Assembly: GCA_944389415.1 (NCBI GenBank) | Contig: CALXMF010000005.1 | Coordinates: 19,798-83,797, forward strand | Length of the DNA stretch: 64,000 nucleotides | DNA from: an uncultured Spirochaetota bacterium | GTDB lineage: Bacteria; Spirochaetota; Spirochaetia; Treponematales; Treponemataceae | Reading direction: 5' to 3' | Shown here: positions 26,865 through 52,599 of the stretch, one piece after another | Layout of the letters: each line of letters opens with the position of its first letter | How positions within the stretch are numbered: position 1 is the first letter of the stretch | Notes under the pieces: model-generated | Seen by the model: the letters and a program-made list of their open reading frames with translations, nothing else | The model's database searches: none | What the model was told of the DNA's origin: nothing | Position numbers and translations under genes: made by a program

Positions 26865-27012
26865 GAGCATGTTTATACCGATCTTTGCAGCATGTTTCGG
26901 CAGCGCAAAAATCTATAGGAATTTAATTAAACACACTTTACACCAACATGGGATTTCATGGGAAAGGTGTCTTTATTTAAATTCTCTCTATCATTTCGTT
27001 TGGACTACTACA

Positions 27013-28719
27013 ATGCATAAAAAAGAATCTTCAGTTATACAAAAATTTTTACCATTGCTTACTCACCGCCAGAAAATCGGTTTTATTATTCTTATTTTTA
27101 TGGCAATCCTGTTATCTGTAGTAGAAACAGTTGGGATTTCTGCTATCATGCCATTTATTTCTATCGCATCAAATCCGGATCTAGTTAACCAAAATAAAAT
27201 ATATCACACTGTATACACCTTTTTAAATTTCAAGACACGCAATTCATTTATTATCTTTCTTGGCATAGGTATTATGGTGTTCTATTTTTTCAGAGCTCTG
27301 TACAATGTCTTATACACCTATTTTCTAGCCAAATATTCAAATAGTGTATTTATGCATTTGAGCAGCCGGTTATTCGCTGTTTATCTAAAACAACCGTATA
27401 CCTCGTTTCTGCAACAAAACGCTTCTACCCTCACAAATCATATTATGGGCGAAGCAAATATGACCAGTACTTACCTTCTCAGTTTTTTGCAAATTTTTCC
27501 CGAGGCATTTACTGTCACATTGTTATACATCATTATGCTTATCGCAAATACCAGTATGACACTGATACTGACCACCGTCTTAGCTATTTCAGTCGCAATC
27601 ATAATCAGAGTAATCACCAAAATCAACAGAAAACAAGGCTCAATCCGTTCCGCCGCAAACGATAAATTATACAAGACTCTTGGAGAGGCCTTTGGTAATT
27701 TTAAATTTATAACTCTGCGCGGTAATGATGCCGATTTGCTCACTCGCTTTAATACAATAAATACAAAAAAATCCCGGTCGCAGATCATCAGCACAATGCT
27801 TCAGACACTTCCTCGCTGCATCATGGAAAGCTTCGGTTTTATTATATTAATAGCAGTTATTGTGTATATAGTATGGAAATATCAATCAGCAGAAACAGTC
27901 ATACCAACAGTTTCGCTGTACGCCTTATCCATGTACCGCATTTTGCCGGCTTTGAACAGATCTATGGGATGTATCAGTACGCTTGTTTATAACCAGAAAT
28001 CTATGGATATTGTGCATGCAGACTTATCACTGCCGGTACGGCAAGAAGGAATGGCACCAGTATCTTTTAATCACACTATACGGGCAGAAAATATCTCATT
28101 CAGCTATGTAGAAAATAAAAAGATTTTGCATAAAATCGGACTTACTATTCATAAAGGTGAAAAACTTGCTATAGTCGGCGAAAGCGGCGGAGGCAAGTCA
28201 ACACTCGTTGATCTGCTCATTGGACTGCATCGTCCCGATGAAGGTGCTTTGTACGTTGATGAAACAGAAATCACAAACGACAACATCAGAGACTGGCGCA
28301 GGCACATCGGATATATTCCCCAAACAATCTATCTCTTTGATGGAACTGTAGCAGAAAATATATCTTTTGGCAGTCCGTATGACGAGAAACGAATTGAAGA
28401 AGTCTTAAAAAAGGTATGCCTGTGGGATATGCTGCAAGAACGAGAAGGCCTGCATACCCGTGTCGGAGACGGCGGAGTACAACTGAGCGGAGGACAAAAA
28501 CAGCGAATTGGCATAGCCCGTGCTATTTATACTAACCCGGATATCCTGGTGCTGGATGAGGCTACATCAGCGCTTGATACAGAAACAGAAGCCCAAATTA
28601 TGGAAGAGATATATCAGCTGAGTCAGGATAAAACACTCATCATTATTGCCCACCGGCTGTCAACGATAGAATTATGCGACAGACGGATTGAAATACATCA
28701 CGGAAAGATCAGGACTTAA
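27013..28719 (+). CDS. Fused TMD-NBD ABC exporter (MsbA/PglK-like)
   Basis: Start at MHKKESSVIQKF. Six-TM N-terminal half, Walker A GESGGGKST, signature LSGGQKQR, Walker B ILVLDEATSALD. Confidence 0.9.
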   Translation: MHKKESSVIQKFLPLLTHRQKIGFIILIFMAILLSVVETVGISAIMPFISIASNPDLVNQNKIYHTVYTFLNFKTRNSFIIFLGIGIMVFYFFRALYNVLYTYFLAKYSNSVFMHLSSRLFAVYLKQPYTSFLQQNASTLTNHIMGEANMTSTYLLSFLQIFPEAFTVTLLYIIMLIANTSMTLILTTVLAISVAIIIRVITKINRKQGSIRSAANDKLYKTLGEAFGNFKFITLRGNDADLLTRFNTINTKKSRSQIISTMLQTLPRCIMESFGFIILIAVIVYIVWKYQSAETVIPTVSLYALSMYRILPALNRSMGCISTLVYNQKSMDIVHADLSLPVRQEGMAPVSFNHTIRAENISFSYVENKKILHKIGLTIHKGEKLAIVGESGGGKSTLVDLLIGLHRPDEGALYVDETEITNDNIRDWRRHIGYIPQTIYLFDGTVAENISFGSPYDEKRIEEVLKKVCLWDMLQEREGLHTRVGDGGVQLSGGQKQRIGIARAIYTNPDILVLDEATSALDTETEAQIMEEIYQLSQDKTLIIIAHRLSTIELCDRRIEIHHGKIRT

Positions 28720-28724
28720 TTTTT

Positions 28725-30401
28725 ATGAATATTTTTAATATAAAACATACTTTTACTAAATTTACTATCGGCTGTTGTCTGCTGTCTGCTGCGTTCGCGC
28801 AGGAAGCGTTAAAATCTACAGAAGAGGAATATTACGATTTTCTGTCTATTCAGGGACTCGCGGAACGTCCGACCCTGAATTACCGCACACTATCTGACTC
28901 TGAATGGAAACTGACTGGAGAGGCAGAAGATGGCAATCATGTGTGGGCGGATAATAATCTGGGAACCCGTTTTATCCTGTGGCAGGCGGCAAATCCGGCG
29001 GATAACTGGTTTGTACGGGGCATAGACCAGAGCATTACTATGAAAGTATACGGCCCTGAATGGTTTAACAGCTTTAATACCGCTGCCCCTTACGGTCAGA
29101 ATGACGGCGCGCTCTGGCAGGGACGCGGTTATAATACAAGTCTTACCGGCGGTATCCGCTTTGAGGCATACGGTTTTGAGGCGACATTTAAACCGCAGCT
29201 CAGCTTTAGCCAGAACATGGCGTTTGATATTATGCCTTCCGCCTACGACAGTGAATACGGTTATTTCTGGGGATACAGTAAGAATGTCGGCGTAGACGCT
29301 CCACAGCGTTTCGGTAATAAGCCGTTCTTTACCTATGACTGGGGCGACACGGAAATCCGCTGGAGCTGGCATACATTTACAGTGGGTTTTGGGACGCAAT
29401 CAATCTGGCTTGGTCCGGCATACCTGAATCCCATACTGCACTCAAATAACGCAGCCACATATCCTAAATTTGACATCGGATTACGAAAACAACGAATTGT
29501 TATACCAAAACTCGGCTGGTATCTGGGAGATATTGAATTCCGATTATGGACAGGTTACCTCAGTGAATCTGAATACTTTGATAATGACAGCAGCAATGAT
29601 CATAACATGATTCACGGATTAAGTTTTGCGTACTCGCCCTCATTCCTGCCAGGATTAACTCTTTTTGCAAATAGAACATGTTTGGTAAAATGGGACTGGG
29701 CAAACCTGAAATATATCTGGCCTGCACTAGCAAATACCCATATAGGAGAACAGGGAGCCGGGGAAGATCAGAAAATGTCATTTGGTTTTTCTTGGCTTTT
29801 CCCACAAGTGGGGTTTGAAATATATGCAGAATTAGGTATTGATGATTTCACACCTTCAAACACCTTAGGATTTATCAGATATCCTTTTGACACGATGGTC
29901 TATACCTTAGGATTTGAAAAGTCTTTCGCAATAAATGATTCAAAAAAAATTTATGCACTAATCAATTTTGAATCAAATTTCCTAGAAAAAAATACACACC
30001 GCTCAGGAAGTAATTATACATACTATTTTCATCATCAAATTACACAGGGATATACAAATAGAGGACAATGGTTAGCTGCAGGTATTGGAACCGGAGGAAA
30101 TTCTCAGTATTGTAGTATTTCAGTTATTTATCCTCAAGGTCAAACTTCTTTATTTTTTCATAGATATAATGTTGATAATGATTATGCATATTGGGGATGG
30201 AATCATTTAGATCAATATCGTTATAAAACGAATTTTATAATTGGGATTAAGCAACAGTATTATCTTTTAAGCTCATTAAGTATAAACGGGAGTTTTGTAT
30301 ATGATATGATCATAAACCCATTATATGATGGAACAGTTAATGCTGACGAGTACTTACAACATAACATATCATTATCAATAGGAATAAAATACACCTTATA
30401 G
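28725..30401 (+). CDS. Outer-membrane beta-barrel protein, probably Wzi-family capsule assembly protein
   Basis: Signal peptide, an N-terminal YYDFLSIQGLAERPTLNYRTLS segment resembling the Wzi helical plug, aromatic-rich beta-strand pattern and a C-terminal ...IGIKYTL. The family call is from memory. Confidence 0.55.
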   Translation: MNIFNIKHTFTKFTIGCCLLSAAFAQEALKSTEEEYYDFLSIQGLAERPTLNYRTLSDSEWKLTGEAEDGNHVWADNNLGTRFILWQAANPADNWFVRGIDQSITMKVYGPEWFNSFNTAAPYGQNDGALWQGRGYNTSLTGGIRFEAYGFEATFKPQLSFSQNMAFDIMPSAYDSEYGYFWGYSKNVGVDAPQRFGNKPFFTYDWGDTEIRWSWHTFTVGFGTQSIWLGPAYLNPILHSNNAATYPKFDIGLRKQRIVIPKLGWYLGDIEFRLWTGYLSESEYFDNDSSNDHNMIHGLSFAYSPSFLPGLTLFANRTCLVKWDWANLKYIWPALANTHIGEQGAGEDQKMSFGFSWLFPQVGFEIYAELGIDDFTPSNTLGFIRYPFDTMVYTLGFEKSFAINDSKKIYALINFESNFLEKNTHRSGSNYTYYFHHQITQGYTNRGQWLAAGIGTGGNSQYCSISVIYPQGQTSLFFHRYNVDNDYAYWGWNHLDQYRYKTNFIIGIKQQYYLLSSLSINGSFVYDMIINPLYDGTVNADEYLQHNISLSIGIKYTL

Positions 30402-30579: not shown

Positions 30580-31491
30580 ATGATAACAAAAAAAACAATT
30601 CCTTTAGAAACCACAATCACATTTGAAACAAAATGTTATGAAAATGATTGGGAATATATATTAAAAGGTTCATACCTAAAAAAAATGATCGATAGATGCG
30701 GGATACAGTTTACTGTACGGCAGCTCATCATAAACAACATAAAAAACAGAGAACTTGTAGAATCTTACGCAAAACGAAAAGTAGCTGAAGGTGTAATAGA
30801 TGTATATTATTTTACAGAAGATACAGAAGAAGAAGTTTTAAATTTTTTTAAGCTCACAAAGGAGTCCTTAGGAAAAGGTTTTGTGTATTCTATATCAGAG
30901 TTTACCGGTATTTATAAATGTAAAACAGATTTCTTACTGCATTTTTCAAGCGACGCCTATTTAACAAAAACGGCAAAAAAATCAACATGGATTTCAGAAG
31001 CGATAGAACAAATGAAAAACAACAATACTTTCATCGTTGCAACCCCATGTTGGAATCATCTGTATTTATCAGCAAAAGCAGAATCATATGGGACGACAGG
31101 GAATTTTTATCTAGCACAAGGTTTTTCAGACCAATGCTATCTGATTCCTGTAAAGATATTTCAGCAAAAAATATATAACGAGAAGCACCCATATTCGGAA
31201 CGTTACCCACAATATGGAGGAGAATTGTTTGAAAAACGAGTCGATTCCTTTCTCCGTACACATGATTACTACAGATTAATCTACAAAAAAGTCTCATATA
31301 TTCACGCTAATTTCCCCAAAACAAAAGCAAAAAAGAAAGCATATATGTTTGTCACAAAAAAATTGGGGAATGAATTTACAACTCTTTTTCGTACACCTTC
31401 CTGTATACATAGATTCTATGATATTATTATATCAGTCGTCAAAACACTCTTTCATCGGTATACCAATATGACACATAAGGAGTTTAATTAA
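30580..31491 (+). CDS. Hypothetical protein, possibly a GT-A-fold transferase
   Basis: 303-aa ORF co-directional within the glycan locus. I recognise no clear signature. Confidence 0.55.
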   Translation: MITKKTIPLETTITFETKCYENDWEYILKGSYLKKMIDRCGIQFTVRQLIINNIKNRELVESYAKRKVAEGVIDVYYFTEDTEEEVLNFFKLTKESLGKGFVYSISEFTGIYKCKTDFLLHFSSDAYLTKTAKKSTWISEAIEQMKNNNTFIVATPCWNHLYLSAKAESYGTTGNFYLAQGFSDQCYLIPVKIFQQKIYNEKHPYSERYPQYGGELFEKRVDSFLRTHDYYRLIYKKVSYIHANFPKTKAKKKAYMFVTKKLGNEFTTLFRTPSCIHRFYDIIISVVKTLFHRYTNMTHKEFN

Positions 31492-33748: not shown

Positions 33749-34561
33749 ATGACCTTTAATACAGGAGAAACATCAGAAACGTTAAGGCAAACATATAATC
33801 CCGATGGAAGCACACTGAGAAAAGCACAATTACGCATGTTGGATATGTTATTATTTTTAGACAAAATCTGTAAAGAAAATGACATTCAATACTTTTTATC
33901 AGATGGAAATCTGCTTGGTGCAGTCAGGCATGGAGGTTTTATTCCATGGGATGATGATATGGACATTATTATTATGGAGAAAGACGCCAAACGCCTAAAA
34001 AAAATCCTACTAACCCAATATAAAGATACACCATATGTATTACAATGCCATCAAACAGATCATAATTATAAACAATTCTGGTATGTGTTAAGAGATCGAT
34101 ACAGTGAATACATACAGGATTCACAAATACATAAAGCAAGAAAATATAAAGGATTACAAGTTGATATTTTTATTTACTCTGATAAAATTATTCCTATCTT
34201 AAAAAAGATAAGCTACCAAATAGTAAAACTATCTAACAAAATGATCGAAAAACAACATTTGAAAGCAGCGGAATTCCTTTTCGCTATTAATAATTTATTA
34301 GTTATACCAATTTTTAAATTTATAAGTCTGTTTAAAATCAATAAAAATGATATCTCTCATACTTACACTGCCAAATGGTACACATCCTTTAAAAAAGACG
34401 AAATTTTCCCGTTAGGCACAATCCAGTTTGAAGGACATACAATTCCTGCTCCCAGAAATACCACATATTACCTGGAGACGTTATTTGGAGCAAATTATAT
34501 GGATTTACCATCAATCGAAAAAAGAGATGCGCACAAAGCAAATATTCTCTTTTATAAATAA
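33749..34561 (+). CDS. licD: LicD-family phosphotransferase
   Basis: LRMLDMLLFLDKICKENDIQYFLSDGNLLGAVRHGGFIPWDDDMDIIIM (LicD nucleotidyltransferase-fold DxD). Confidence 0.85.
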   Translation: MTFNTGETSETLRQTYNPDGSTLRKAQLRMLDMLLFLDKICKENDIQYFLSDGNLLGAVRHGGFIPWDDDMDIIIMEKDAKRLKKILLTQYKDTPYVLQCHQTDHNYKQFWYVLRDRYSEYIQDSQIHKARKYKGLQVDIFIYSDKIIPILKKISYQIVKLSNKMIEKQHLKAAEFLFAINNLLVIPIFKFISLFKINKNDISHTYTAKWYTSFKKDEIFPLGTIQFEGHTIPAPRNTTYYLETLFGANYMDLPSIEKRDAHKANILFYK

Positions 34562-37553: not shown

Positions 37554-38720
37554 ATGAACATAACAGTTATCGGAGTTGGATACGTAGGTCTTGCGAACGC
37601 TATTCTCCTTGCACAACATAATCAGGTTATCGCGTTCGATATAAACCCTGCAAAAATTAATTTAATAAATAACAAAACATCACCAATTGCAGATAAAGAA
37701 ATAGAACTGTATTTAAAAGAAAAAGAATTGCACCTAAAAGCAACAACAGATAAAAATTGTGCATATGCAAATCCCGACTATGTAATTATAGCAACACCCA
37801 CAGATTATGATACAGAAAAAAACTTTTTTAATACCACTGCGGTTGAATCTGTAATAAACGACTGTGCCCTGCTCGCCCCCCATGCTGCCATTATTATAAA
37901 ATCAACTATTCCTGTCGGTTTTACAGAAGCAATGCAAAAGAAATATCCTAATCTTACGCTTGCTTTCTCTCCTGAGTTTCTGCGTGAAGGAAAAGCCTTA
38001 TATGATAATCTCTACCCTTCTCGTATCATCCTTGGCGGGCAGGGAGAAAAAATACGGCAGTTTGCATCTCTATTGCAGCAGGGCGCTATAAAATCGGATA
38101 TTCCGGTTCTATTTATGCATTCCACAGAAGCAGAAGCCGTCAAGCTTTTTTCTAATACATATCTTGCGCTGCGTATCTCATATTTTAATGAATTGGATAC
38201 ATATGCAGAAATACGAGGATTGGATACACAAGCCATCATACAGGGTGTCTGTCTGGACCCCCGTATTGGAGATGGATACAATAATCCATCATTTGGATAT
38301 GGCGGTTATTGCTTACCCAAAGATACAAAACAACTAAAAGCAAATTATCAGAACATCCCGGAAAATCTCATCAGCGCAATAGTAGCATCAAACACAACCC
38401 GGAAAGATCATATTGCTCATATGATAGAGCAAAAAAATCCCCATTGTGTCGGGATTTATCGGCTCACCATGAAAACCAACAGTGATAATTTCAGAGCCTC
38501 CGCAATTCAGGGGATTATGAAGCGGCTGAAAAGTTCTGGTATAGAAGTTATCGTGTATGAACCAACATTAGAAGCAGATACATTCTTAAATTCACGGGTA
38601 ATAAAAGATCTCGAAGCCTTTGCAAATGCATCTGATATCATCGTCTGCAATCGGCTCACACCAGAAATACAAAAATTCAAAACAAAAATATACACACGTG
38701 ATTTGTGGGGAAAAGATTAA
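37554..38720 (+). CDS. ugd: UDP-glucose 6-dehydrogenase
   Basis: [13 protein letters not shown] Rossmann motif and catalytic [10 protein letters not shown]; 388 aa. Confidence 0.9.
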
Positions 38721-38721
38721 G

Positions 38722-39711
38722 ATGAATTTCAAATTATTATATGTTGTTGTTTCATCTGAAAGTGACACCTATTTAGAGCAAGCATATTTATCAATGTTTT
38801 CTGCAAAATTTTATATGCCACATGCAAAAATCACTCTACTTACTGATGACTTGACTGATAAAACTTTGATAGGGAACAGAAAAAATATTTTGAAATATAC
38901 AGATGAATATATTTGTATTCCCCTAGACCCAAAATACACATCAAAAATAAGATCCCGGTTATTAAAAACCAATATGAGGCACTATGTTGAAGGAGATTTT
39001 TTATATATAGATTCTGATACTATCATATGTGATGATTTATCAGATTTGGTATCAACACAGAATTCGATTTCAGGCGTATATGATTTACATGTACCTTTAA
39101 ATAATCACCCAAAAAAAAATGATGTACTCAATGGACTTCGTGCTGTACAAGCACAACCTGATTTATCAAAAGGATATTATAATAGTGGAGTTCTTTTAGT
39201 CAAAGACACACCCGAATCATATACTTTTTTTACAGAATGGAATCAACAATATCTTAAACATATTGCAGTGATGACACAGGACCAACCATCGTTAGAATTG
39301 GTTCGGGAAATGTATCCGAATATTATACACAATCTGCCTGACACATATAATACACAAATCCTTTATACTACTAGATATATCCGCAAAATGAAAATATTGC
39401 ATTATTTTTCAAGCGGATTCTTACCAAATTATGAAAACAAGTATTCCTGTAAATTCTGTGATATAAATTTACTAAAAACCATAAAAACTGAAGGAGAAAT
39501 TCCAGAAGCAGTAAAGCAGCTTATTTTAGAACCTGAAAAATCTTTATTAGAAACAGCTTTTATTTTTCCACCTACAACTTTTTTTGAATCTCATATTTTT
39601 CGCTGTACAGAACGTCTATTTCAATGCAGAAACAAAAACTTATTTACACGCATCTTATTTCAGTGTTCAGAATATACACTCCGATTTTTTGTTAAACTAT
39701 TTTGCCATTAG
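38722..39711 (+). CDS. Glycosyltransferase family 8-like
   Basis: Start at MNFKLLYVVVSS, right after the ugd stop. Motifs YIDSDTII (DxD) and YYNSGVLLV. Confidence 0.65.
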   Translation: MNFKLLYVVVSSESDTYLEQAYLSMFSAKFYMPHAKITLLTDDLTDKTLIGNRKNILKYTDEYICIPLDPKYTSKIRSRLLKTNMRHYVEGDFLYIDSDTIICDDLSDLVSTQNSISGVYDLHVPLNNHPKKNDVLNGLRAVQAQPDLSKGYYNSGVLLVKDTPESYTFFTEWNQQYLKHIAVMTQDQPSLELVREMYPNIIHNLPDTYNTQILYTTRYIRKMKILHYFSSGFLPNYENKYSCKFCDINLLKTIKTEGEIPEAVKQLILEPEKSLLETAFIFPPTTFFESHIFRCTERLFQCRNKNLFTRILFQCSEYTLRFFVKLFCH

Positions 39712-40869: not shown

Positions 40870-42170
40870 ATGAATAAAATAGTTTATTTAGGAATGACAG
40901 GAGATATTATTCATCCAGGATTAATTAATATCATATCAGAAGCAGCAAAACTGGGAGATGTAATGATAGGATTATTAACTGATTCTGCAATTGCTCCGCA
41001 TAAACGATTACCATATCTTACATATGATCAACGTAGAACAGTAATTGAACATATAAAAGGTGTAAAAAGAGTTGTTCCGCAAGACGAGTGGAGTTATGTA
41101 CCGAATCTTCGTAAGTACAAACCAGATATTATCATTCATGGAGATGATTGGCAAATTGGCCCACTCAGTCTTATTCGAAAAGAAGTTTTTCAAGTTATGA
41201 AAGAAATAGGTGGAGAAGTTGTCGAGATTCCCTATACAACCGGAATTTCATCATCAGCACTGCATGATGAAATGAATAGTATCGGAACAACTCCTGAGAT
41301 AAGAATGAAAACGCTCCGTCGATTGCTTAATACAAAAAAGATCATACGTATTATGGAAGCTCACTCCGGTTTATCAGGTTTAATCATTGAGAAATTAGCT
41401 ATAGAAAAATCAGATGGACTTCATGCTTTTGATGGAATTTGGTCATCAAGTCTTACAGACTCAGTTTCAAAAGGGAAACCAGATATAGAAGCAGTAGATT
41501 TGACTACTCGCCTGCAGGACCTGACCAATATTTTAGAATGTACAACCAAACCAATTATATTCGATGGTGATACTGGTGGAAAAACAGAGCATTTTGTATT
41601 TACTGTTAGAACATTGGAAAGGAATGGAATATCAGCTATAATTATAGAAGATAAAATAGGTTTGAAAAAAAATTCTTTATTTGGAACTGAGGTTGAACAA
41701 CATTTAGCTCCGATACCAGATTTCTGCCATAAAATTAGTGAAGGCAAAAAGGCTCAAGTAACAAAAGATTTCATGATTTTTGCTCGATTGGAATCACTTA
41801 TTGCAGGATATTCTGTTGATGACGCATTACAAAGAGCGGATGCATATGTCAAAGCAGGAGCAGATGGAATTATGATTCATAGTAAGGAAAAACATGGCGA
41901 TGATATTAGGACATTCTGTACCACATTCAGAAAAACATTTCCAGACATACCAATTATTTTAGTTCCAACAACATATAATCAATTTACAGAAACAGAGCTT
42001 GCATCATGGGGTGCAAATATTATTATCTATGCGAACCATATGTTGAGAGCATCATATCCAGCAATGTTAAAGGTTGCCCGCTTAATATTGGAAAACGAGA
42101 GAGCTGCAGAGACAGATTTATTGTGTATGCCTATCAAACAAATTCTAGAGTTAATTCCAGGAGGAAAATA

Positions 42171-42171
<1 letters not shown>
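40870..42171 (+). CDS. aepX: Phosphoenolpyruvate mutase with N-terminal TagD-like cytidylyltransferase-fold domain
   Basis: AGGAGG RBS. The PEP mutase signature EDKxxxxxNS is present as EDKIGLKKNS. The first 130 aa or so resemble glycerol-3-P cytidylyltransferase (GDDW, TTGISSS) but carry IHPGL instead of HxGH. Confidence 0.85.
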
Positions 42172-45135
<2,964 letters not shown>

Positions 45136-45173: not shown

Positions 45174-47873
45174 ATGGCACATATTTTATATTCAATAATT
45201 ATTTATCCAATTACACTCCTTATAGAAATCATTCTCCAATTTGGTGAAAAACTTTTTAATAATACTGTTATAGCAATTTTAGGTGTAAGTACTGCTGTAT
45301 CACTGTTTTGTTTGCCATTATATATCATTGCTGAACGGTGGCAGCAAAAAGAAAGGGCTCAAATTGCAAAACTTAAACCTAAAGTAGATAAAATAAAAGA
45401 AGTATTTAAAGGTGATGAGCAGTACATGATATTAGCTACATTCTATAAACAAAATCATTATCATCCCTTTTATGCGTTTAGAAATTCCCTTGGATTATTA
45501 ATTCAGATACCGTTTTTCATCGCAGCGTATACGTTCTTATCAAATTACACACCGTTACAGGGGGAATCTTTTTTTGCAATCGCAGATTTAGCAAAGCCTG
45601 ATGCACTCATATCAATAAAAAATTATTCTATCAATATACTACCAATCATTATGACTGCAATTAATTGTTTGGCCAGCGCCATTTATACAAAAGGTCTTTC
45701 CTTGAAAGACAAAATTCAACTTTATGGAATGGCATTCATATTTCTAATTTTATTATATAATTCCCCATCAGGATTAGTTATATATTGGACAATGAATAAT
45801 GTGATATCACTTGTTAAAAACATTTTTTATAAACTCAGAAATCCAAAACAAGTCCTCTATATACTCTGTACAATACTGAGCGTTCTTTTAATTATTTTTG
45901 ATTTATTTATTTTAAATAAGGACCTTTATGATAGAATCATATTAGCATTGATTTTATGCATGATTCCCCTTTTTCCAATTATATCAAAATTATATACATA
46001 TTCACTGAAAACTATATTCACAGAAATAATTAGTTTTTCCCAAAAACGGTTTATCCTTTTTACACTTGCTTCTACGCTTATATTTATACTCATTGGCCTT
46101 AATATCCCTACATCCATTATTGCATCATCCCCTCAAGAATTTTCTTTTGTAGACAAACACTCTTCTCCCCTATATTTTATTTATGTAACCAGTTTACAAG
46201 CATTTGGCTTATTTGTTGTTTGGCCCTCTATATTTTATAGTCTTTTTTCTCCTAAAATAAAAGTATTGATAACAATCTGCATGGTTTTCACAGCTATTGC
46301 AGCAGTAATCAATACATTCGCATTCTCTGGGAATTATGGAATTCTCTCAACAATGTTAACATTTACACAAACACGTGTTTTAAAACCGACAAGTCAAGAA
46401 GCAGTATTAAATATAATATGTATTTGTTTGATAATTAGCATCTGTATTTATTGTTTTTATAAATACAAAAGTAATTTAATTACTTTTATTATGACAATCA
46501 CTTTTATTGCAATATTCATTACATCATTCATTAATATCATCGCTATACAAAAAGGATATACAAACCTAGTAGAAATCAAAAAAGATGTCAATCAAGTAAA
46601 AACAGTCTCTCCTATTTTCAGTCTTTCAAAAACAGGAAAAAATGTTTTTATTATTATGCTCGACAGAGCGGCTAATGGATATGTACCAACTATATTTAAT
46701 GAAAATCCGGAATTATATTCTCAATATGATGGTTTTATATACTATCCAAATACACTTTCTTTCAATGATTACACCCTTATTGGGGCACCGCCTTTATTTG
46801 GAGGATATGAATATACTCCACAGGAAATAAATAAACGAAGTAGCGAGAAATTGAAAGAAAAACATAATGAGTCACTTCTAGTTCTTCCCCGAATCTTTTC
46901 AGAAGCAGGATTTGATACTGTAATCACAGATCCTCCATGGAGTAATTATAGTCTTGTACCTGATGTATCAATTTATAAACCATATCCATCTATTAAACCT
47001 TATATTACTAATCGTACATACACAGATATATGGCTGAAAGAACATGATATAGGAAACATGCAAATCAGAAGTTCTATTTTAGAAAGAAATTTTTTATTTT
47101 TCGGTCTATTGAAAATTTCACCTTTATTCATACGGGATATTATTTATGATGATGGCGCTTACTGGAATTCAGATTCTCAAATTGATGATATTGAATTATT
47201 AATAAATAGCTATTCTGTACTAGATTATCTTCCCAAATTAACAGAGATAAATACTAATACCCAAAATAATACTTTTACATTTATGGTCAATGATCTAACA
47301 CATGAACCTATGCCTCTACAAGCACCGGATTATATTCCGCATGTACCAATAACACAAACCGGTAATACACCCTTTTCAGATGAACCACACTATCCTGTTA
47401 ATGCGGCTGCATTAAAATTGATTGGTAAATGGTTAAAATTTTTAAAAGAAAATAATGTATATGATAATACCCGTATAATAATAACATCAGACCATGGTGC
47501 TAATATTACATCAAAGCAATTTTCTTACCAACAATTTCCGTTTAATCCAGAAACACACAATCCATTATTGTTAGTAAAAGATTTTAATCAGCACTCATCA
47601 GAATTCAATGTACTGAATACGGATTATACATTAATGACAAATGCAGATGTACCAATACTAGCTGTTCAACAAGTGATAAAGAATCCCCTCAATCCTTTTA
47701 CAGGCAAACAATTGACGAGTGAAATAAAACAAGATAAACTGTATGTTGTACATGGAGTTAAATGGACACCAGATGCACATATGGAAAATATATTTAATAT
47801 AAAACCAGAACAATGGTATTCGGTCAAAGATAATATTCTGCAATCAGATAATTGGAAACAAGAGCATCCATAA
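45174..47873 (+). CDS. Polytopic membrane protein: YidC/Oxa1-like N-terminal region plus C-terminal LtaS/sulfatase-like (alkaline-phosphatase superfamily) domain
   Basis: YidC-like: LPLYIIAERWQQKERAQIAKLKPKVDKIKEVFKGDEQ...FYKQNHYHPF and SGLVIYWTMNNVISLVKN. About a dozen hydrophobic segments extend to about residue 460. Then FIIMLDRAANGY, NDLTHEP and IIITSDHG follow, in the order expected for metal and nucleophile motifs. Confidence 0.6.
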   Translation: MAHILYSIIIYPITLLIEIILQFGEKLFNNTVIAILGVSTAVSLFCLPLYIIAERWQQKERAQIAKLKPKVDKIKEVFKGDEQYMILATFYKQNHYHPFYAFRNSLGLLIQIPFFIAAYTFLSNYTPLQGESFFAIADLAKPDALISIKNYSINILPIIMTAINCLASAIYTKGLSLKDKIQLYGMAFIFLILLYNSPSGLVIYWTMNNVISLVKNIFYKLRNPKQVLYILCTILSVLLIIFDLFILNKDLYDRIILALILCMIPLFPIISKLYTYSLKTIFTEIISFSQKRFILFTLASTLIFILIGLNIPTSIIASSPQEFSFVDKHSSPLYFIYVTSLQAFGLFVVWPSIFYSLFSPKIKVLITICMVFTAIAAVINTFAFSGNYGILSTMLTFTQTRVLKPTSQEAVLNIICICLIISICIYCFYKYKSNLITFIMTITFIAIFITSFINIIAIQKGYTNLVEIKKDVNQVKTVSPIFSLSKTGKNVFIIMLDRAANGYVPTIFNENPELYSQYDGFIYYPNTLSFNDYTLIGAPPLFGGYEYTPQEINKRSSEKLKEKHNESLLVLPRIFSEAGFDTVITDPPWSNYSLVPDVSIYKPYPSIKPYITNRTYTDIWLKEHDIGNMQIRSSILERNFLFFGLLKISPLFIRDIIYDDGAYWNSDSQIDDIELLINSYSVLDYLPKLTEINTNTQNNTFTFMVNDLTHEPMPLQAPDYIPHVPITQTGNTPFSDEPHYPVNAAALKLIGKWLKFLKENNVYDNTRIIITSDHGANITSKQFSYQQFPFNPETHNPLLLVKDFNQHSSEFNVLNTDYTLMTNADVPILAVQQVIKNPLNPFTGKQLTSEIKQDKLYVVHGVKWTPDAHMENIFNIKPEQWYSVKDNILQSDNWKQEHP

Positions 47874-49198: not shown

Positions 49199-50281
49199 AT
49201 GAAAATAGCAATAGATTGCAGAATGATAGAATCAAGTGGTATTGGAGTTTTTTTACGAGAAACACTACGATATCTTGTAAAAAGCAGCAATACTTTTATT
49301 CTCATAGGTTCTCAGCAGGTTATATACAAAAATATACCAGAACTCTCTCAAACGACAAACACTTATATCATTGAATGTTCATGTAAACCGTTCTCTGTGC
49401 AGGAAACTTTCATGTTTCCGTCTGCCATTTGCGAACAAATTAACAGGTGTGATATCTACTATACTCCCTTTTTTAATGTTCCAAACGGAATCCAAATACC
49501 CATTTATATAACCATTCATGATATTATTTTTCCTGATATACCTGAACTGACATCTAGATTGGGGTTATTAATACGGATGTGGTTTTACAGACGGGCATAT
49601 AAAAAAGCACAAGGTATTTTAACTGTTTCTCATTTTTCTGAAGAACGCATAAAAGTACATCTGGGCACTCAGAAACCAATCTATGTTGTCTACAGCGCGG
49701 TTGCATCATATCTGGATGAGTATACAGAAGAGGCAAACATACAAAAACAGATTCTCTTTGTCGGGAATATCAAAAAGCATAAAGGACTGGCTATTCTTAT
49801 TCCCGCTTTTAGACAGCTGAGAAAACAATTCCCTGATATAAAACTAGTCATTGTTGGCAGTGCTGAAAATTTCAGAAGTCATGATTCTGCAATTCTCGAT
49901 CTCCAGCACACAGCAGAAACTGATGGAATACATTTTACCGGATACATTAATGATACCGAATTAAGAAAACTATATACAGATTCAGCAGTTCTTGTGCAGC
50001 CATCATTTTACGAGGGCTTTGGGTTGCCGCCTCTTGAAGCAATGTATTGCGGAACACCGGCAATTATTTCTGATATCCCTGTATTTAAAGAAATATATGC
50101 ATCCTATCCGGTAGACTATTTTCAGTGCGGCAATATCTCAGATTTATATGAAAAAATGTATAATTTTTTCAGTAATATATACCCCAAGCGAATTTCTCTC
50201 ACTGACCAACAAAAACAGAAGTATTCTTTTTCAGATAAAGCACAACACATTCTCAATATATTTTCGGAAGGGAAAAAATGA
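49199..50281 (+). CDS. Glycosyltransferase family 4
   Basis: QPSFYEGFGLPPLEAMYCGTPAIISDIPVFKEIY. Confidence 0.8.
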   Translation: MKIAIDCRMIESSGIGVFLRETLRYLVKSSNTFILIGSQQVIYKNIPELSQTTNTYIIECSCKPFSVQETFMFPSAICEQINRCDIYYTPFFNVPNGIQIPIYITIHDIIFPDIPELTSRLGLLIRMWFYRRAYKKAQGILTVSHFSEERIKVHLGTQKPIYVVYSAVASYLDEYTEEANIQKQILFVGNIKKHKGLAILIPAFRQLRKQFPDIKLVIVGSAENFRSHDSAILDLQHTAETDGIHFTGYINDTELRKLYTDSAVLVQPSFYEGFGLPPLEAMYCGTPAIISDIPVFKEIYASYPVDYFQCGNISDLYEKMYNFFSNIYPKRISLTDQQKQKYSFSDKAQHILNIFSEGKK

Positions 50282-51291
50282 TTATAACACAAACACCTTT
50301 CAGAATGTCTTTTTTTGGCGGGGGCACAGATTTTCCCGGTTTTTATCACCAATATGGCGGTTCAGTCATTTCAACCACATTTGATAAATACTGTTATGTA
50401 AATGTCAGACATCTGCCAAGATTTTTTGATTATACTACTGAGTTATGTTATGCAAAAATTGAGCGAGTAACCTCTATAAAAGACATACAACACCCGGCAA
50501 TACGCAACGCAATGGAATATTTGCATATGCATGAACTTAGACTCTCATATGAGGCAGATCTTCCGGCAAGATCCGGGCTTGGCACATCAAGTTCATTTGC
50601 AGTTGGTATGCTCCATGCCTTCTATGCGATGAAGGGAAAATATGTTGATAAAAGGAAGCTGGCTGACGATGCCATTTATCTTGAACGGACTCTCTGTAAT
50701 GAGAAAGGTGGTATTCAGGATCAAATTGCTGCAAGTTTTGGTGGATTCAACCGTATCAATTTTTCTTCGAGTGGATATACAGTTCATCCTATTATTATTT
50801 CTCCAGAACGAAAAGAACAACTTAATAACAGTCTTATGCTCTTCTTTACCGGATTTGCACGGTTTTCATCAGAAATTCAAACAGCAACAGAACAGGCTCT
50901 TCAACAAAAAGATAAAGATAACTTACTCAAAGAAATGTTATCTCTTGTAGATGACGCAGAAAAAATCTTAACATCACATACCGATCTTGATGAATTTGGC
51001 AAATTACTTGATTATACATGGAAACTGAAACGAGGGCTTACCAATAAAATATCTTCAGATACAATTGATATATTATATCAGACTGGAATTGCTGCCGGAG
51101 CTATTGGGGGCAAACTTCTTGGCGCTGGAGGCGGTGGTTTTTTACTTTTCTATGTACCAATAGATAAGAAAGCCGCTGTACAGGAAGCATTGAAAAAATT
51201 GCTATATGTTCCATTTGCATTTGAAGATGCAGGTACTCAAGTTATCCATTATACCCCGGAGATTTATCAGCCGGATGAAAGCAGGGAGTGA
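50278..51291 (+). CDS. hddA: GHMP-family sugar kinase, HddA-like (D-glycero-D-manno-heptose 7-phosphate kinase)
   Basis: ATGA overlap with the upstream gene. MIITQTPFRMSFFGGGTDFP and GHMP motif PARSGLGTSSSF. Confidence 0.7.
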   Translation: MIITQTPFRMSFFGGGTDFPGFYHQYGGSVISTTFDKYCYVNVRHLPRFFDYTTELCYAKIERVTSIKDIQHPAIRNAMEYLHMHELRLSYEADLPARSGLGTSSSFAVGMLHAFYAMKGKYVDKRKLADDAIYLERTLCNEKGGIQDQIAASFGGFNRINFSSSGYTVHPIIISPERKEQLNNSLMLFFTGFARFSSEIQTATEQALQQKDKDNLLKEMLSLVDDAEKILTSHTDLDEFGKLLDYTWKLKRGLTNKISSDTIDILYQTGIAAGAIGGKLLGAGGGGFLLFYVPIDKKAAVQEALKKLLYVPFAFEDAGTQVIHYTPEIYQPDESRE

Positions 51292-51297
51292 ATAAGA

Positions 51298-52599
51298 ATG
51301 AAAGCTGTTATTATGGCCGGTGGTAAAGGTACTCGAATCGCTTCTGTAAATGCGGAAGTACCTAAACCGATGATCCAGATTCTTGGTAAACCAATTCTTG
51401 AATATCAACTTGAAAACCTGAAGGCACAGGGGATTACTGATATAATTCTAGTTGTCGGACACCTTAAACAGGTGATTCAGAATTATTTTGGAGATGGCAC
51501 ACGCATATCGCCCTGCACCAGCAGGCCATTTGGAGTTAATATTAGCTATATAGAAGAAAATGAACCGCTTGGTACTGCAGGCGCTCTGTATTACCTTAAA
51601 AACAGCCTTACAGATGATTTTTTGCTGCTATGCGGAGATATTATTTTTGATATAGATATTGAACGTTTCTATACATTTCATAAACAGCATGGAGCATACG
51701 CAACAATATTTACTCATCCCAATAGTCATCCGTATGACAGCGGAATTATTATTGCTGATGAAAAAGGCTGCGTTCACAATTGGCTGCACAAAGAAGATGC
51801 ACGGACATGGTATAAAAATCGCGTCAATGCCGGTATCCATATTATTTCACCGAATTTACTCAGTAATTTTACGACCCCAATCAAAAAAGATTTAGATAGA
51901 GATATATTAAAGCCATTAATCTCCGAACATCAATTATATTGCTATGACTCACCTGAATATGTAAAAGACATGGGTACCCCAGATCGGTTTTACAGTGTAA
52001 TAGAGGATATTAAAAGCGGCAGAGTACATGCTAAAAACCTTCATAACAAACAGAAAGCTATTTTTCTGGATCGAGATGGAACGATTAATACCTACACTGG
52101 ATTTTTAACAGCACCCGAGCAATTGACACTGCTGCCAGGTGCCGCAGAAGCGATCAGAAAGATAAATGAAAGCGGTTATCTGGCAATTGTAATCACCAAC
52201 CAACCTGTTATTGCCCGCGGTGATTGTACTATTGAAGAATTAAATATTATTCACCAAAAACTAGAAACCATGCTTGGAAAAGAAGGTGCTTATCTTGATG
52301 GGATTTACTATTGTCCGCATCATCCTGAGAAGGGGTTTCCTGGAGAGCGTCCTGAATATAAGATAGAATGCAACTGCAGAAAGCCGAAGCCTGGACTGAT
52401 TTTAGAGGCTGTTCAACATTTTAATATTGATATTCAATCATCATGGATGATTGGAGACAGTCTGACAGACATTAAATGTGGAAAAAATGCAGGGTGTCAG
52501 AGTGCCGGCGTGGGAGAAACACTCTTAAGAGAAAAGGATACTGATTTTCCTGTTTTCAATTCCTTACTGGAATGTATACAACATATTTTACCGGAATAA
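51298..52599 (+). CDS. Fusion of sugar-1-phosphate nucleotidyltransferase (HddC-like) and HAD-IIIA heptose bisphosphate phosphatase (GmhB-like)
   Basis: N-terminal MKAVIMAGGKGTRI. C-terminal FLDRDGTIN, CNCRKPKPG and GDSLTDIKCG. Confidence 0.75.
   Translation: MKAVIMAGGKGTRIASVNAEVPKPMIQILGKPILEYQLENLKAQGITDIILVVGHLKQVIQNYFGDGTRISPCTSRPFGVNISYIEENEPLGTAGALYYLKNSLTDDFLLLCGDIIFDIDIERFYTFHKQHGAYATIFTHPNSHPYDSGIIIADEKGCVHNWLHKEDARTWYKNRVNAGIHIISPNLLSNFTTPIKKDLDRDILKPLISEHQLYCYDSPEYVKDMGTPDRFYSVIEDIKSGRVHAKNLHNKQKAIFLDRDGTINTYTGFLTAPEQLTLLPGAAEAIRKINESGYLAIVITNQPVIARGDCTIEELNIIHQKLETMLGKEGAYLDGIYYCPHHPEKGFPGERPEYKIECNCRKPKPGLILEAVQHFNIDIQSSWMIGDSLTDIKCGKNAGCQSAGVGETLLREKDTDFPVFNSLLECIQHILPE

Follow-up and report, generated by a model that had tools for sequence, protein, structure and literature searches.

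A spirochaete protein family that joins a YidC/Oxa1-fold module to a predicted periplasmic alkaline-phosphatase-superfamily domain in surface-glycan loci

To our knowledge, every characterised and active enzyme that couples a polytopic transmembrane (TM) domain to an alkaline phosphatase (AP)-superfamily domain, namely LtaS, LtaP, EptA/MCR-1, OpgB and GacH, is a phospho-alcohol transferase that draws on a lipid donor. The YidC/Oxa1 proteins, on the other side, are known as protein insertases and chaperones and, more recently, as lipid scramblases. Here, we describe a protein in which both folds are found in one chain (hereafter the fusion). Its gene occupies positions 45174..47873 (+) of a 64,000-nucleotide stretch of DNA (the window) from an uncultured Spirochaetota bacterium. 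The initial annotation of this window had reported a single open reading frame (ORF) of 899 amino acids with a two-domain architecture, and both statements proved correct: the gene is one ATG-to-stop ORF of that length, and the fusion of an N-terminal YidC-fold module to a C-terminal AP-superfamily domain is supported by Pfam, NCBIfam, AlphaFold2 (AF2) and Foldseek. While the kind of enzyme is known, the use of an insertase fold in it is unprecedented and unexplained; our literature searches for YidC-sulfatase or YidC-LtaS fusions, 2-aminoethylphosphonate (AEP) transferases and teichoic-type enzymes of Treponema found no publication on this architecture, the sole remark that bears on it being that AEP clusters of Selenomonas contain multiple 'sulfatases' (PMC8942020).

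The closest analogue of the fusion is GacH in functional terms, and LtaP/LtaS and PbgA/MCR-1 in structural terms. GacH and SccH, the streptococcal glycerol-phosphate transferases, resemble the fusion in having a polytopic membrane domain (11 TM helices in GacH) followed by an extracytoplasmic AP domain with a Thr nucleophile and in being encoded in a cell-wall polysaccharide cluster, where they decorate the finished glycan from a lipid donor, which for GacH is phosphatidylglycerol (10.1101/337519). However, no sequence relationship between GacH and the fusion was detectable beyond the catalytic core, and GacH belongs to a Gram-positive host, has neither a YidC fold nor a TagF-like partner and, like LtaS, uses a Glu as the first metal ligand, whereas the fusion has Asp497. 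LtaS and LtaP are the best structural matches of the C-terminal domain (4uop with E=4e-8, as well as 4uoo, 2w5r and 2w8d in the Protein Data Bank, PDB) and share with it the order of ligand, Thr, His and Asp/His together with an N-terminal TM domain and a catalytic domain outside; yet LtaS has five TM helices as compared with about 12, and its sequence match (4uoo) was marginal, with E=3.6e-5 over 53 residues only. Like the fusion, EptA/MCR-1 and PbgA (YejM) reside in the inner membrane of Gram-negative hosts and have a periplasmic domain that faces this membrane, and the Foldseek alignments of full-length PbgA and MCR-1 span 624-690 columns; because this exceeds the catalytic domain alone, the last TM helices of the fusion appear to be arranged as in these proteins. 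In contrast to the fusion, EptA has five TM helices and works from phosphatidylethanolamine onto lipid A, and neither EptA/MCR-1 nor PbgA, the latter regarded as a non-enzymatic lipopolysaccharide (LPS)-binding protein, carries a YidC module. The counterparts of that module are the YidC insertases (E. coli YidC, B. halodurans YidC2 and T. maritima YidC), with which the fusion shares the five-TM core, the hairpin and a C-terminal PSGLxxYW..N motif, and from which it differs by a Thr/Ser in place of the groove Arg, by its attachment to an enzyme, by its multiple copies and by its location in variable glycan loci.

The YidC assignment of the N-terminal part is far beyond chance. Pfam 60KD_IMP (PF02096) matched residues 33-219 with E=4.4e-24 (85.7 bits against a cut-off of 35), TIGR03592 scored 88.6 against a cut-off of 84.3, and the AF2 model (built on an alignment of 28 family members; pLDDT 80.9, pTM 0.62) could be placed by Foldseek on E. 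coli YidC (6al2_B) with a root-mean-square deviation of 3.9 Å over 208 columns at 23% identity. Sequence comparison with solved YidC structures also gave the YidC core. The YidC-like N-terminus that had been read from sequence motifs therefore held up under both the profile and the structure searches, and all the quoted YidC and AP motifs were present at the expected places. As the YidC/Oxa1/Alb3 fold demands, the model has a core of five TM helices, the first two of which are joined by a cytoplasmic helical hairpin: TM1 covers residues 31-54, the Lys/Arg-rich hairpin 55-100, and TM2-TM5 extend up to residue 219 (AF2 helices 31-77, 81-93, 100-123, 155-171, 177-195 and 199-219). The hydrophobic helix of residues 1-30 matches the stretch of YidC immediately before its first core TM helix and presumably corresponds to 'EH1' of E. 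coli YidC. At the equivalog level, the assignment to YidC failed, as the best NCBIfam equivalog model gave 77.7 bits against a cut-off of 891. Moreover, the fusion lacks the periplasmic P1 domain and the N-terminal anchor; a C-terminal ribosome-binding tail is missing as well, because TM6 comes directly after the YidC core.

To place this protein within its family, one genome per species was scanned, which gave at least 589 relatives; the best-scoring 79 loci, which represent close relatives, were analysed, and the 104 full-length family members in them were aligned. The position of the hydrophilic-groove arginine, located by alignment with T. maritima YidC, whose arginine we take to be equivalent to R366 of E. 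coli, is occupied by Thr in 63 and Ser in 37 of these 104 proteins, by Asn in three and Cys in one, and by Arg or Lys in none. Against this background, the YidC module was still the most conserved part of the protein, with a mean pairwise identity of 0.64 as compared with 0.41 for the AP domain and 0.30 for the block of seven TM helices that connects them; the cytoplasmic hairpin reached 0.60, and 59 of the 192 positions of the module were conserved at 95% or more. The same picture was obtained with paralogs from the same locus (0.67 for the YidC module, 0.39 for the AP domain and 0.29 for the seven-TM block). Two paralogs occur in 28 of the 79 loci and three in eight, often in tandem, with up to three within 22 kb. 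Since the YidC module is the most constrained part, it should have a constant role while the remainder diversifies. On the other hand, two to three paralogs in 36 of the 79 loci, the location in a low-GC and variable glycan island and the absence of the groove Arg make it very unlikely that this is a housekeeping insertase, in line with the initial annotation, which had taken the YidC-like part for a scaffold or channel. The YidC fold appears to be an obligatory and highly constrained part of the enzyme.

Behind the YidC core, seven further TM helices were predicted (AF2 helices 224-246, 251-280, 289-318, 332-357, 360-383, 407-430 and 434-470), so that hydropathy and AF2 together give about 12-13 TM helices in total, with the seven laid out over residues 224-460 and an alpha/beta domain at 480-899; the initial annotation had counted about a dozen hydrophobic segments after the YidC part, which applies to the whole protein instead. 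The positive-inside rule is obeyed in hydropathy and AF2, with Lys and Arg in the short cytoplasmic loops and an acidic loop at residues 318-331. Because the YidC core ends in the cytoplasm and is followed by an odd number of TM helices, the AP domain is predicted to lie on the periplasmic side, in agreement with what had been proposed earlier.

The AP-superfamily identity of the C-terminal part is borderline by sequence and clear by structure, as judged from the AF2 model. Pfam Sulfatase (PF00884) reached 24.3 bits over residues 522-808, just below the gathering cut-off of 25, and a precomputed PF00884 match exists for roughly a third of the homologs among the matches listed. Foldseek, in contrast, returned 168 PDB matches at E<=0.001, led by LtaP and followed by PbgA, MCR-1, YejM and LtaS and then by many sulfatases. 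PDB sequence searches with the whole protein and with the AP profile gave core-motif matches to sulfatases, phosphonate monoester hydrolase (PMH) and LtaS that were too weak for a subfamily assignment; in terms of sequence, this AP domain would be a very divergent branch. Nevertheless, its catalytic residues appear complete. D497, T534, H710, D773, H774, K802 and D825 are invariant in all 104 members, every same-locus paralog included, and their order (an acidic residue after strand 1, a Thr at the N-terminus of a helix, a His and an Asp-His pair) is that of the AP superfamily, in which the corresponding sets are E488/T530/D711/H712 in GacH and E255/T300/D475/H476 in LtaS (10.1101/337519). The motif order noticed in the initial annotation is therefore real, with Thr rather than formylglycine as the predicted nucleophile. 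The formylglycine motif C/S-x-P-x-R was not found at the nucleophile position in the aligned family, where the window protein reads Y-T534-L-I-G-A-P-P-L-F-G-G, and the protein is therefore not an S1 sulfatase. These data suggest that the AP domain is catalytically intact, with Thr534 as its predicted nucleophile.

The family is large, uniform and specific to spirochaetes (Treponema and relatives). More than 120 full-length relatives were found at 45-61% identity, and all the named ones are from Treponema or Spirochaetaceae; PGAP, IMG and other database sources call them 'YidC/Oxa1 family membrane protein insertase'. Comparison of residues 225-899 with 1.84 billion representatives gave, at E<=1e-30, 938 clusters (50% identity), and of the 150 listed most are about 900 amino acids long and match from near residue 227, and therefore carry the N-terminal module. 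The shorter representatives, sought as versions without YidC, were contig-edge fragments or partial genes, or had no name. A 683-amino-acid candidate (P0128; L083:3712-6436, GCA_024402555.1, WP_318697191.1), publicly named 'sulfatase-like hydrolase/transferase', was rejected because its start codon had been miscalled and the YidC module is encoded upstream, intact and in the same frame. The 79 loci are from metagenome-assembled genomes (MAGs) of Treponema and other spirochaetes from gut, rumen and termite, together with a few evidently mis-binned contigs; many are on short contigs, so that a missing neighbour often says little. Among cultured strains, the fusion is carried by, for instance, Breznakiella homolactica (complete genome CP067089), T. 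socranskii, Treponema sp. Marseille-Q4523 and Treponema sp. R80B11-R83G3. Loci L004, L015, L042, L065 and L072 are filed under MAGs of Prevotella, Desulfovibrionaceae, Paratractidigestivibacter, Anaerovoracaceae and Clostridiales, though they are of the Treponema type, which is probably due to mis-binning rather than horizontal transfer.

As had been stated initially, the fusion gene in the window is located between a CMP-AEP module upstream and a TagF-like gene downstream. The TagF-like gene is also the commonest neighbour of the fusion in the related loci, being present in 54 of 79 and immediately adjacent (<200 bp) in 41, of which 40 have it on the same strand and 34 downstream; conversely, all six loci looked up from TagF-like homologs contain the fusion. 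In B. homolactica and strain R80B11-R83G3, the two genes overlap by 4-8 nt; B. homolactica has two fusion copies in tandem besides the TagF-like gene, and in strain R80B11-R83G3 the order is Ppm-Ppd-NT::AEPT-fusion-TagF-like-fusion. The TagF-like protein resembles TagF/TagB in its GT-B fold, for which TagF itself (3l7k) was the top structural match, and in its Pfam Glyphos_transf domain, although NCBIfam assigned no family to it and the PDB sequence search gave no match. Unlike TagF/TagB, which go with a stand-alone TagD, it is paired with the fusion and with amino-phospho(no) head-group modules, is found in a spirochaete host, and has a true N-terminal TM helix that begins with an invariant LYIDPGTGSxLFS. 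A relaxed form of this motif, searched for in the ORFs of the window and of the 79 loci, matched at the N-terminus of the TagF-like family in every case except two loose ones, and we regard the motif as a possible docking element for the YidC module. The pairwise identity of the TagF-like proteins (0.61) is near that of the YidC module. In a neighbour-joining (NJ) tree, these proteins tended to group by the adjacent head-group module, and for this reason the TagF-like enzyme may be the recogniser of the activated head group.

The initial annotation had named AEP, or glycerol-phosphate from a lipid carrier, as the substituent that the fusion may move, and had proposed co-occurrence with ppm/ppd/pntC as a check. 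The link to AEP was not borne out, as the phosphoenolpyruvate (PEP) mutase Ppm is present in only 13 of the 79 loci, the window included. The equivalent position is taken by a nucleoside triphosphate (NTP)-transferase::HisC-like pyridoxal-phosphate (PLP) enzyme in 10 loci and by an NTP-transferase::CobD-like (threonine-phosphate-decarboxylase-like) PLP enzyme in eight, and no head-group module was found within 10 kb of the fusion in B. homolactica. The AEP genes are one of at least three interchangeable head-group modules. In the HisC-like and CobD-like fusions, a LicC/PntC-like NTP-transferase is joined to the PLP enzyme beside the TagF-like gene (L052:12786-14777, L016:4516-6339, L086:9262-11091 and L083:7691-9516), and these fusions probably make other CDP-activated amino-alcohol phosphates; we know of no characterised NTP-transferase fusion of the HisC-like or CobD-like type. 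It had also been asked at the outset whether the architecture is common in genomes without phosphonate or teichoic-type genes: it is indeed common without the former, but not without a TagF-like gene.

By analogy with the systems above, we consider, with a probability of roughly 0.55, that the fusion is a periplasmic phospho-head-group transferase of the LtaS/EptA/GacH class that acts on the glycan or glycolipid of its locus. The AP domain would take a phospho-alcohol head group from a lipid-linked donor via a covalent Thr-phosphoryl intermediate and pass it to an extracytoplasmic glycan. The most likely acceptor would be the surface glycan or glycolipid made by the surrounding locus, which holds glycosyltransferases, a PglK-like ABC exporter and a Wzi-like protein. 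In Treponema denticola, no LPS pathway could be identified, and an outer-membrane glycolipid is present (PMC3285142). On the cytoplasmic side, the fusion may pair with the adjacent membrane-anchored TagF-like phosphotransferase, which would use a CDP- or CMP-activated head group from the interchangeable module (AEP in the window), and the YidC fold most probably links the cytoplasmic to the periplasmic steps by offering a hydrophilic groove in the membrane or a docking site. The reading as a transferase follows the characterised and active enzymes known to us that have a polytopic TM and an AP domain, all of which are lipid-donor transferases; like the choice of a transferase over a hydrolase, the donor, the acceptor and the part played by the YidC module are inferred.

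Several observations weigh against this proposal. In sequence, the AP domain is no more than marginally similar to LtaS, EptA or GacH, and the PDB matches of its family profile are confined to the surroundings of H710 and the DHG motif, with sulfatases and PMH matching about as well as LtaS. No TagF-like gene is present in 25 of the 79 loci, and although many of these are on short contigs, about six have 10 kb on both sides. In addition, the NJ tree of the AP domains does not sort by head-group module, which argues against a head-group specificity of this domain, and such specificity was rejected as the main explanation; the tree splits into a mostly TagF-adjacent and a mostly non-adjacent clade. 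Both NJ trees were built without support values and may partly reflect species phylogeny. Finally, the locus percentages describe only the best 79 of at least 589 matches.

How the YidC fold would serve a transferase can be explained in more than one way. A rather unlikely model is a three-step relay, comparable to the GtrA/B/C or ArnC/EF/T systems, though acting on phospho-head groups: the TagF-like enzyme, possibly docked by its N-terminal anchor, would load AEP or another amino-alcohol phosphate on a lipid carrier at the cytoplasmic face, the Arg-less groove of the YidC fold, recruited as a translocation or coupling element, would scramble or carry it across the membrane, and the AP domain would deliver it to the surface glycan or glycolipid. 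Phospholipids are scrambled, both in vitro and in silico, by E. coli YidC and other insertases of the Oxa1 family through the hydrophilic groove (PMC11047089). The family members examined have kept the YidC module, which is their most conserved part, and a Thr or Ser at the groove position would suit zwitterionic or cationic head groups. In the same direction point the single TagF-like gene that often serves two or three fusion paralogs, which fits one donor with several acceptors, the grouping by head-group module of the TagF-like proteins and not of the AP domains, and the presence of GtrII-type periplasmic modification systems in the same kind of loci. However, no TagF-family enzyme is known to us that makes a simple lipid-linked head-group donor, the LicD gene of the window could transfer AEP directly in the cytoplasm, bulk phospholipids reach the outer leaflet without a dedicated flippase, and the two trees have the limits given above. 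Alternatively, and with still less confidence on our part, the YidC fold might act on protein, either by holding the N-out anchor of the TagF-like protein in its groove, which would give a trans-membrane complex of two enzymes, or by inserting its own seven TM helices in cis. A short N-tail with a single TM helix and a positively charged cytoplasmic flank, as the TagF-like protein has, is the classic topology of a YidC-only substrate, and the invariant LYIDPGTGSxLFS motif occurs, within the loci, in this family only. The similar and unusually high conservation of the YidC module and the TagF-like protein, the well-conserved cytoplasmic hairpin and the translational coupling of the two genes in cultured strains would also fit. 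Against docking stand the 25 loci and a whole clade of fusion paralogs without an adjacent TagF-like gene; and insertion in cis would explain little, since the periplasmic domain of 430 residues would need Sec and not YidC.

The remaining explanations concern the chemistry and the name of the protein. That the enzyme exists to place AEP on a glycan is now very unlikely: the fusion does adjoin Ppm-Ppd-AEPT in the window and 12 other loci, Selenomonas AEP clusters contain multiple 'sulfatases' (PMC8942020), and PMH is among the structural and sequence matches, but Ppm is missing from 66 of the 79 loci, the same place is filled by other head-group modules or left empty, and the Ppm-adjacent members form no clade, so that the distribution across loci contradicts a specificity for AEP. 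We give an equally low weight to a periplasmic hydrolase, in which the AP domain would trim or release the polymer as a phosphodiesterase, a phosphonate-ester hydrolase or a sulfatase. The enzymes of the AP superfamily with an NPP-type Thr nucleophile are hydrolases, the best PDB profile matches are sulfatases and PMH, and the conserved Lys802 aligns with the 'vIKD' segment of PMH; yet the formylglycine motif is absent, it is hard to see why a hydrolase of soluble substrates should have some twelve TM helices, the nearest structures are the membrane-anchored LtaP, PbgA and MCR-1, and the gene is in biosynthetic rather than catabolic operons. The least probable of all, and by our estimate close to negligible, is what the databases say, namely that this is the YidC/Oxa1 membrane protein insertase of the organism with an accessory domain. 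The names from PGAP, IMG and other sources and the scores above cut-off of PF02096 and TIGR03592 speak for it, whereas the presence in variable glycan loci of as many as three copies in 22 kb, a groove position without Arg in all 104 members, the lack of a ribosome-binding C-tail and scores far below cut-off for all equivalog YidC models speak against it.

If the periplasmic transferase reading is accepted as the working model, the family would suggest that the YidC/Oxa1 fold has been put to a natural and specialised use other than insertion: in roughly a thousand sequence clusters, no other part of this periplasmic glycan-modifying enzyme is as conserved. It would also offer a handle on an in vivo test of the scramblase idea. 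Should the relay through the Arg-less groove be true, this would be the first insertase-fold protein with a dedicated role in the translocation of small molecules or lipids, and a new route for zwitterionic (AEP-type) surface modification. Surface-glycan loci of Treponema contain the family as a standard component in multiple copies, and this includes the cultured oral T. socranskii and the termite-gut Breznakiella, organisms about whose envelope glycolipids little is understood; the cultured hosts make the proposals testable. The phosphonate clusters of spirochaetes may be reread, with AEP as one of several interchangeable head groups that feed a common pair of TagF-like and YidC-AP proteins. 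Furthermore, the annotations 'YidC/Oxa1 family membrane protein insertase' and, for truncated calls, 'sulfatase-like hydrolase/transferase' are misleading and could inflate YidC counts.

Table 1. Features of the fusion gene and its neighbours in the window (nucleotide positions count from the first base of the window; residues refer to the fusion protein)
Feature	Position	Strand	Residues	Basis
PglK-like ABC exporter	26869-28719			
Wzi-like protein	28725-30401			
Head-group (CMP-AEP) module: cytidylyltransferase::PEP mutase, phosphonopyruvate decarboxylase, NTP-transferase::AEP transaminase	40870..45135	+		Pfam; TIGR02320 403 bits, TIGR03301 373 bits
Whole fusion gene: YidC-fold module, 7 TM helices, predicted periplasmic AP-superfamily domain	45174..47873	+		ORF, Pfam, NCBIfam, AF2, Foldseek
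N-terminal hydrophobic helix; P12 and E18 nearly invariant	45174..45263	+	1-30	NCBIfam YidC models align from residue 7; AF2 helix 2-28; conservation
YidC/Oxa1 core: TM1, cytoplasmic coiled-coil hairpin, TM2-TM5	45264..45839	+	31-222	60KD_IMP 33-219; AF2; 6al2_B match
Position of the YidC hydrophilic-groove arginine	45300..45302	+	Ser43	Alignment to T. maritima YidC 5y83 ('...livRlil.PLY' vs '...tavSlfcLPLY')
LPL motif			47-49	
KPKVDKIKEVFKGDEQ motif			68-83	
FYKQNHYHPF motif			90-99	
SGLVIYWTMNNVISLVKN motif			199-216	
Seven-TM block; acidic periplasmic loop with conserved SSPQEFSF (318-325)	45840..46583	+	223-470	Hydropathy, AF2 helices
AP-superfamily domain, LtaS/EptA/PbgA structural class	46584..47870	+	471-899	Foldseek; Pfam Sulfatase 522-808; PDB profile search
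IIMLD motif			493-497	
Predicted metal ligand ending the first beta strand (IIMLD)	46662..46664	+	Asp497	104/104 invariant; strand 490-496
Thr loop YTLIGAPPLFGG			533-544	
Predicted nucleophile at the N-terminus of helix 534-543	46773..46775	+	Thr534	104/104 invariant; analogy to LtaS T300, GacH T530 (10.1101/337519)
NDLTHEP motif			706-712	
Predicted phosphate-binding histidine (LTHEP)	47301..47303	+	His710	104/104 invariant; aligns with sulfatase 'PH.P' histidine
ITSDHG motif			770-775	
Predicted metal ligands (SDHG)	47490..47495	+	Asp773-His774	104/104 invariant; aligned to SDHG of sulfatases, PMH, LtaS
TagF-like CDP-alcohol phosphotransferase, GT-B fold, N-terminal membrane helix	47933..49171	+		Pfam Glyphos_transf; AF2 pLDDT 83.7, helix 10-45; Foldseek TagF 3l7k E=4e-11

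The genes listed in Table 1 are part of a co-directional glycan island (26869-53714) with a GC content of 30-35% as compared with 40-45% in its flanks, which are made up of housekeeping genes (SLT/LysM and OmpA-like upstream, DUF3276 and RNase HII downstream). Apart from the CMP-AEP genes, the fusion and the TagF-like gene, the island encodes a PglK/MsbA-like ABC exporter, the Wzi-like protein, glycosyltransferases (GTs) of families GT2, GT4 and GT8, a LicD protein, a UDP-glucose dehydrogenase and heptose activation; the ABC exporter and the fusion are its only polytopic membrane proteins. No Wzx, Wzy, WaaL or initiating phosphoglycosyltransferase was found in this interval, and the ORF at 30580 matched no NCBIfam family.

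The arrangements PF01467::Ppm and PF12804 (PntC-type) of the CMP-AEP module are as described by Rice et al. (PMC6697681). Some of the mechanically called ORFs overlap, namely Ppm (40870-42171) and Ppd (42006-43301) by 166 nt, and the UDP-glucose dehydrogenase (37554-38720) and the GT8 gene with its TTG start (38620-39711) by 101 nt; the real starts of the downstream genes, Ppd and GT8, are probably later. Homologous Ppd genes are called at 375-382 amino acids as compared with 431 in the window. The LicD-family gene (33749-34561), whose best NCBIfam match, below the cut-off, was the Mycoplasma diacylglycerol cholinephosphotransferase Mf1, is a second candidate for the transfer of AEP or phosphocholine here, and LicD is present in one of the 79 related loci. 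At 50278-52599, a GHMP kinase and a fusion of an NTP-transferase with a GmhB-like HAD phosphatase point to a GDP-heptose-type activation pathway; the SIS isomerase that is located between the heptose-activation genes in related loci (e.g. L002:18562-19188) is missing in the window.

Related loci also contain GtrB-like GT2 and GtrII (GtrC-type) genes for periplasmic glucosylation, CotH-family kinases and a GtrA-domain::GT4 fusion (L053:5547-8181, L055:8705-9985 and L086:3706-5184), and periplasmic decoration after assembly therefore seems to be common in spirochaete glycan loci. Finally, signal-peptide proteins of about 580 amino acids with no Pfam or NCBIfam match recur beside the pair of fusion and TagF-like genes (L080:13385-15127, L081:6484-8223 and L066:17839-19572); their size is close to that of the Wzi-like protein in the window.

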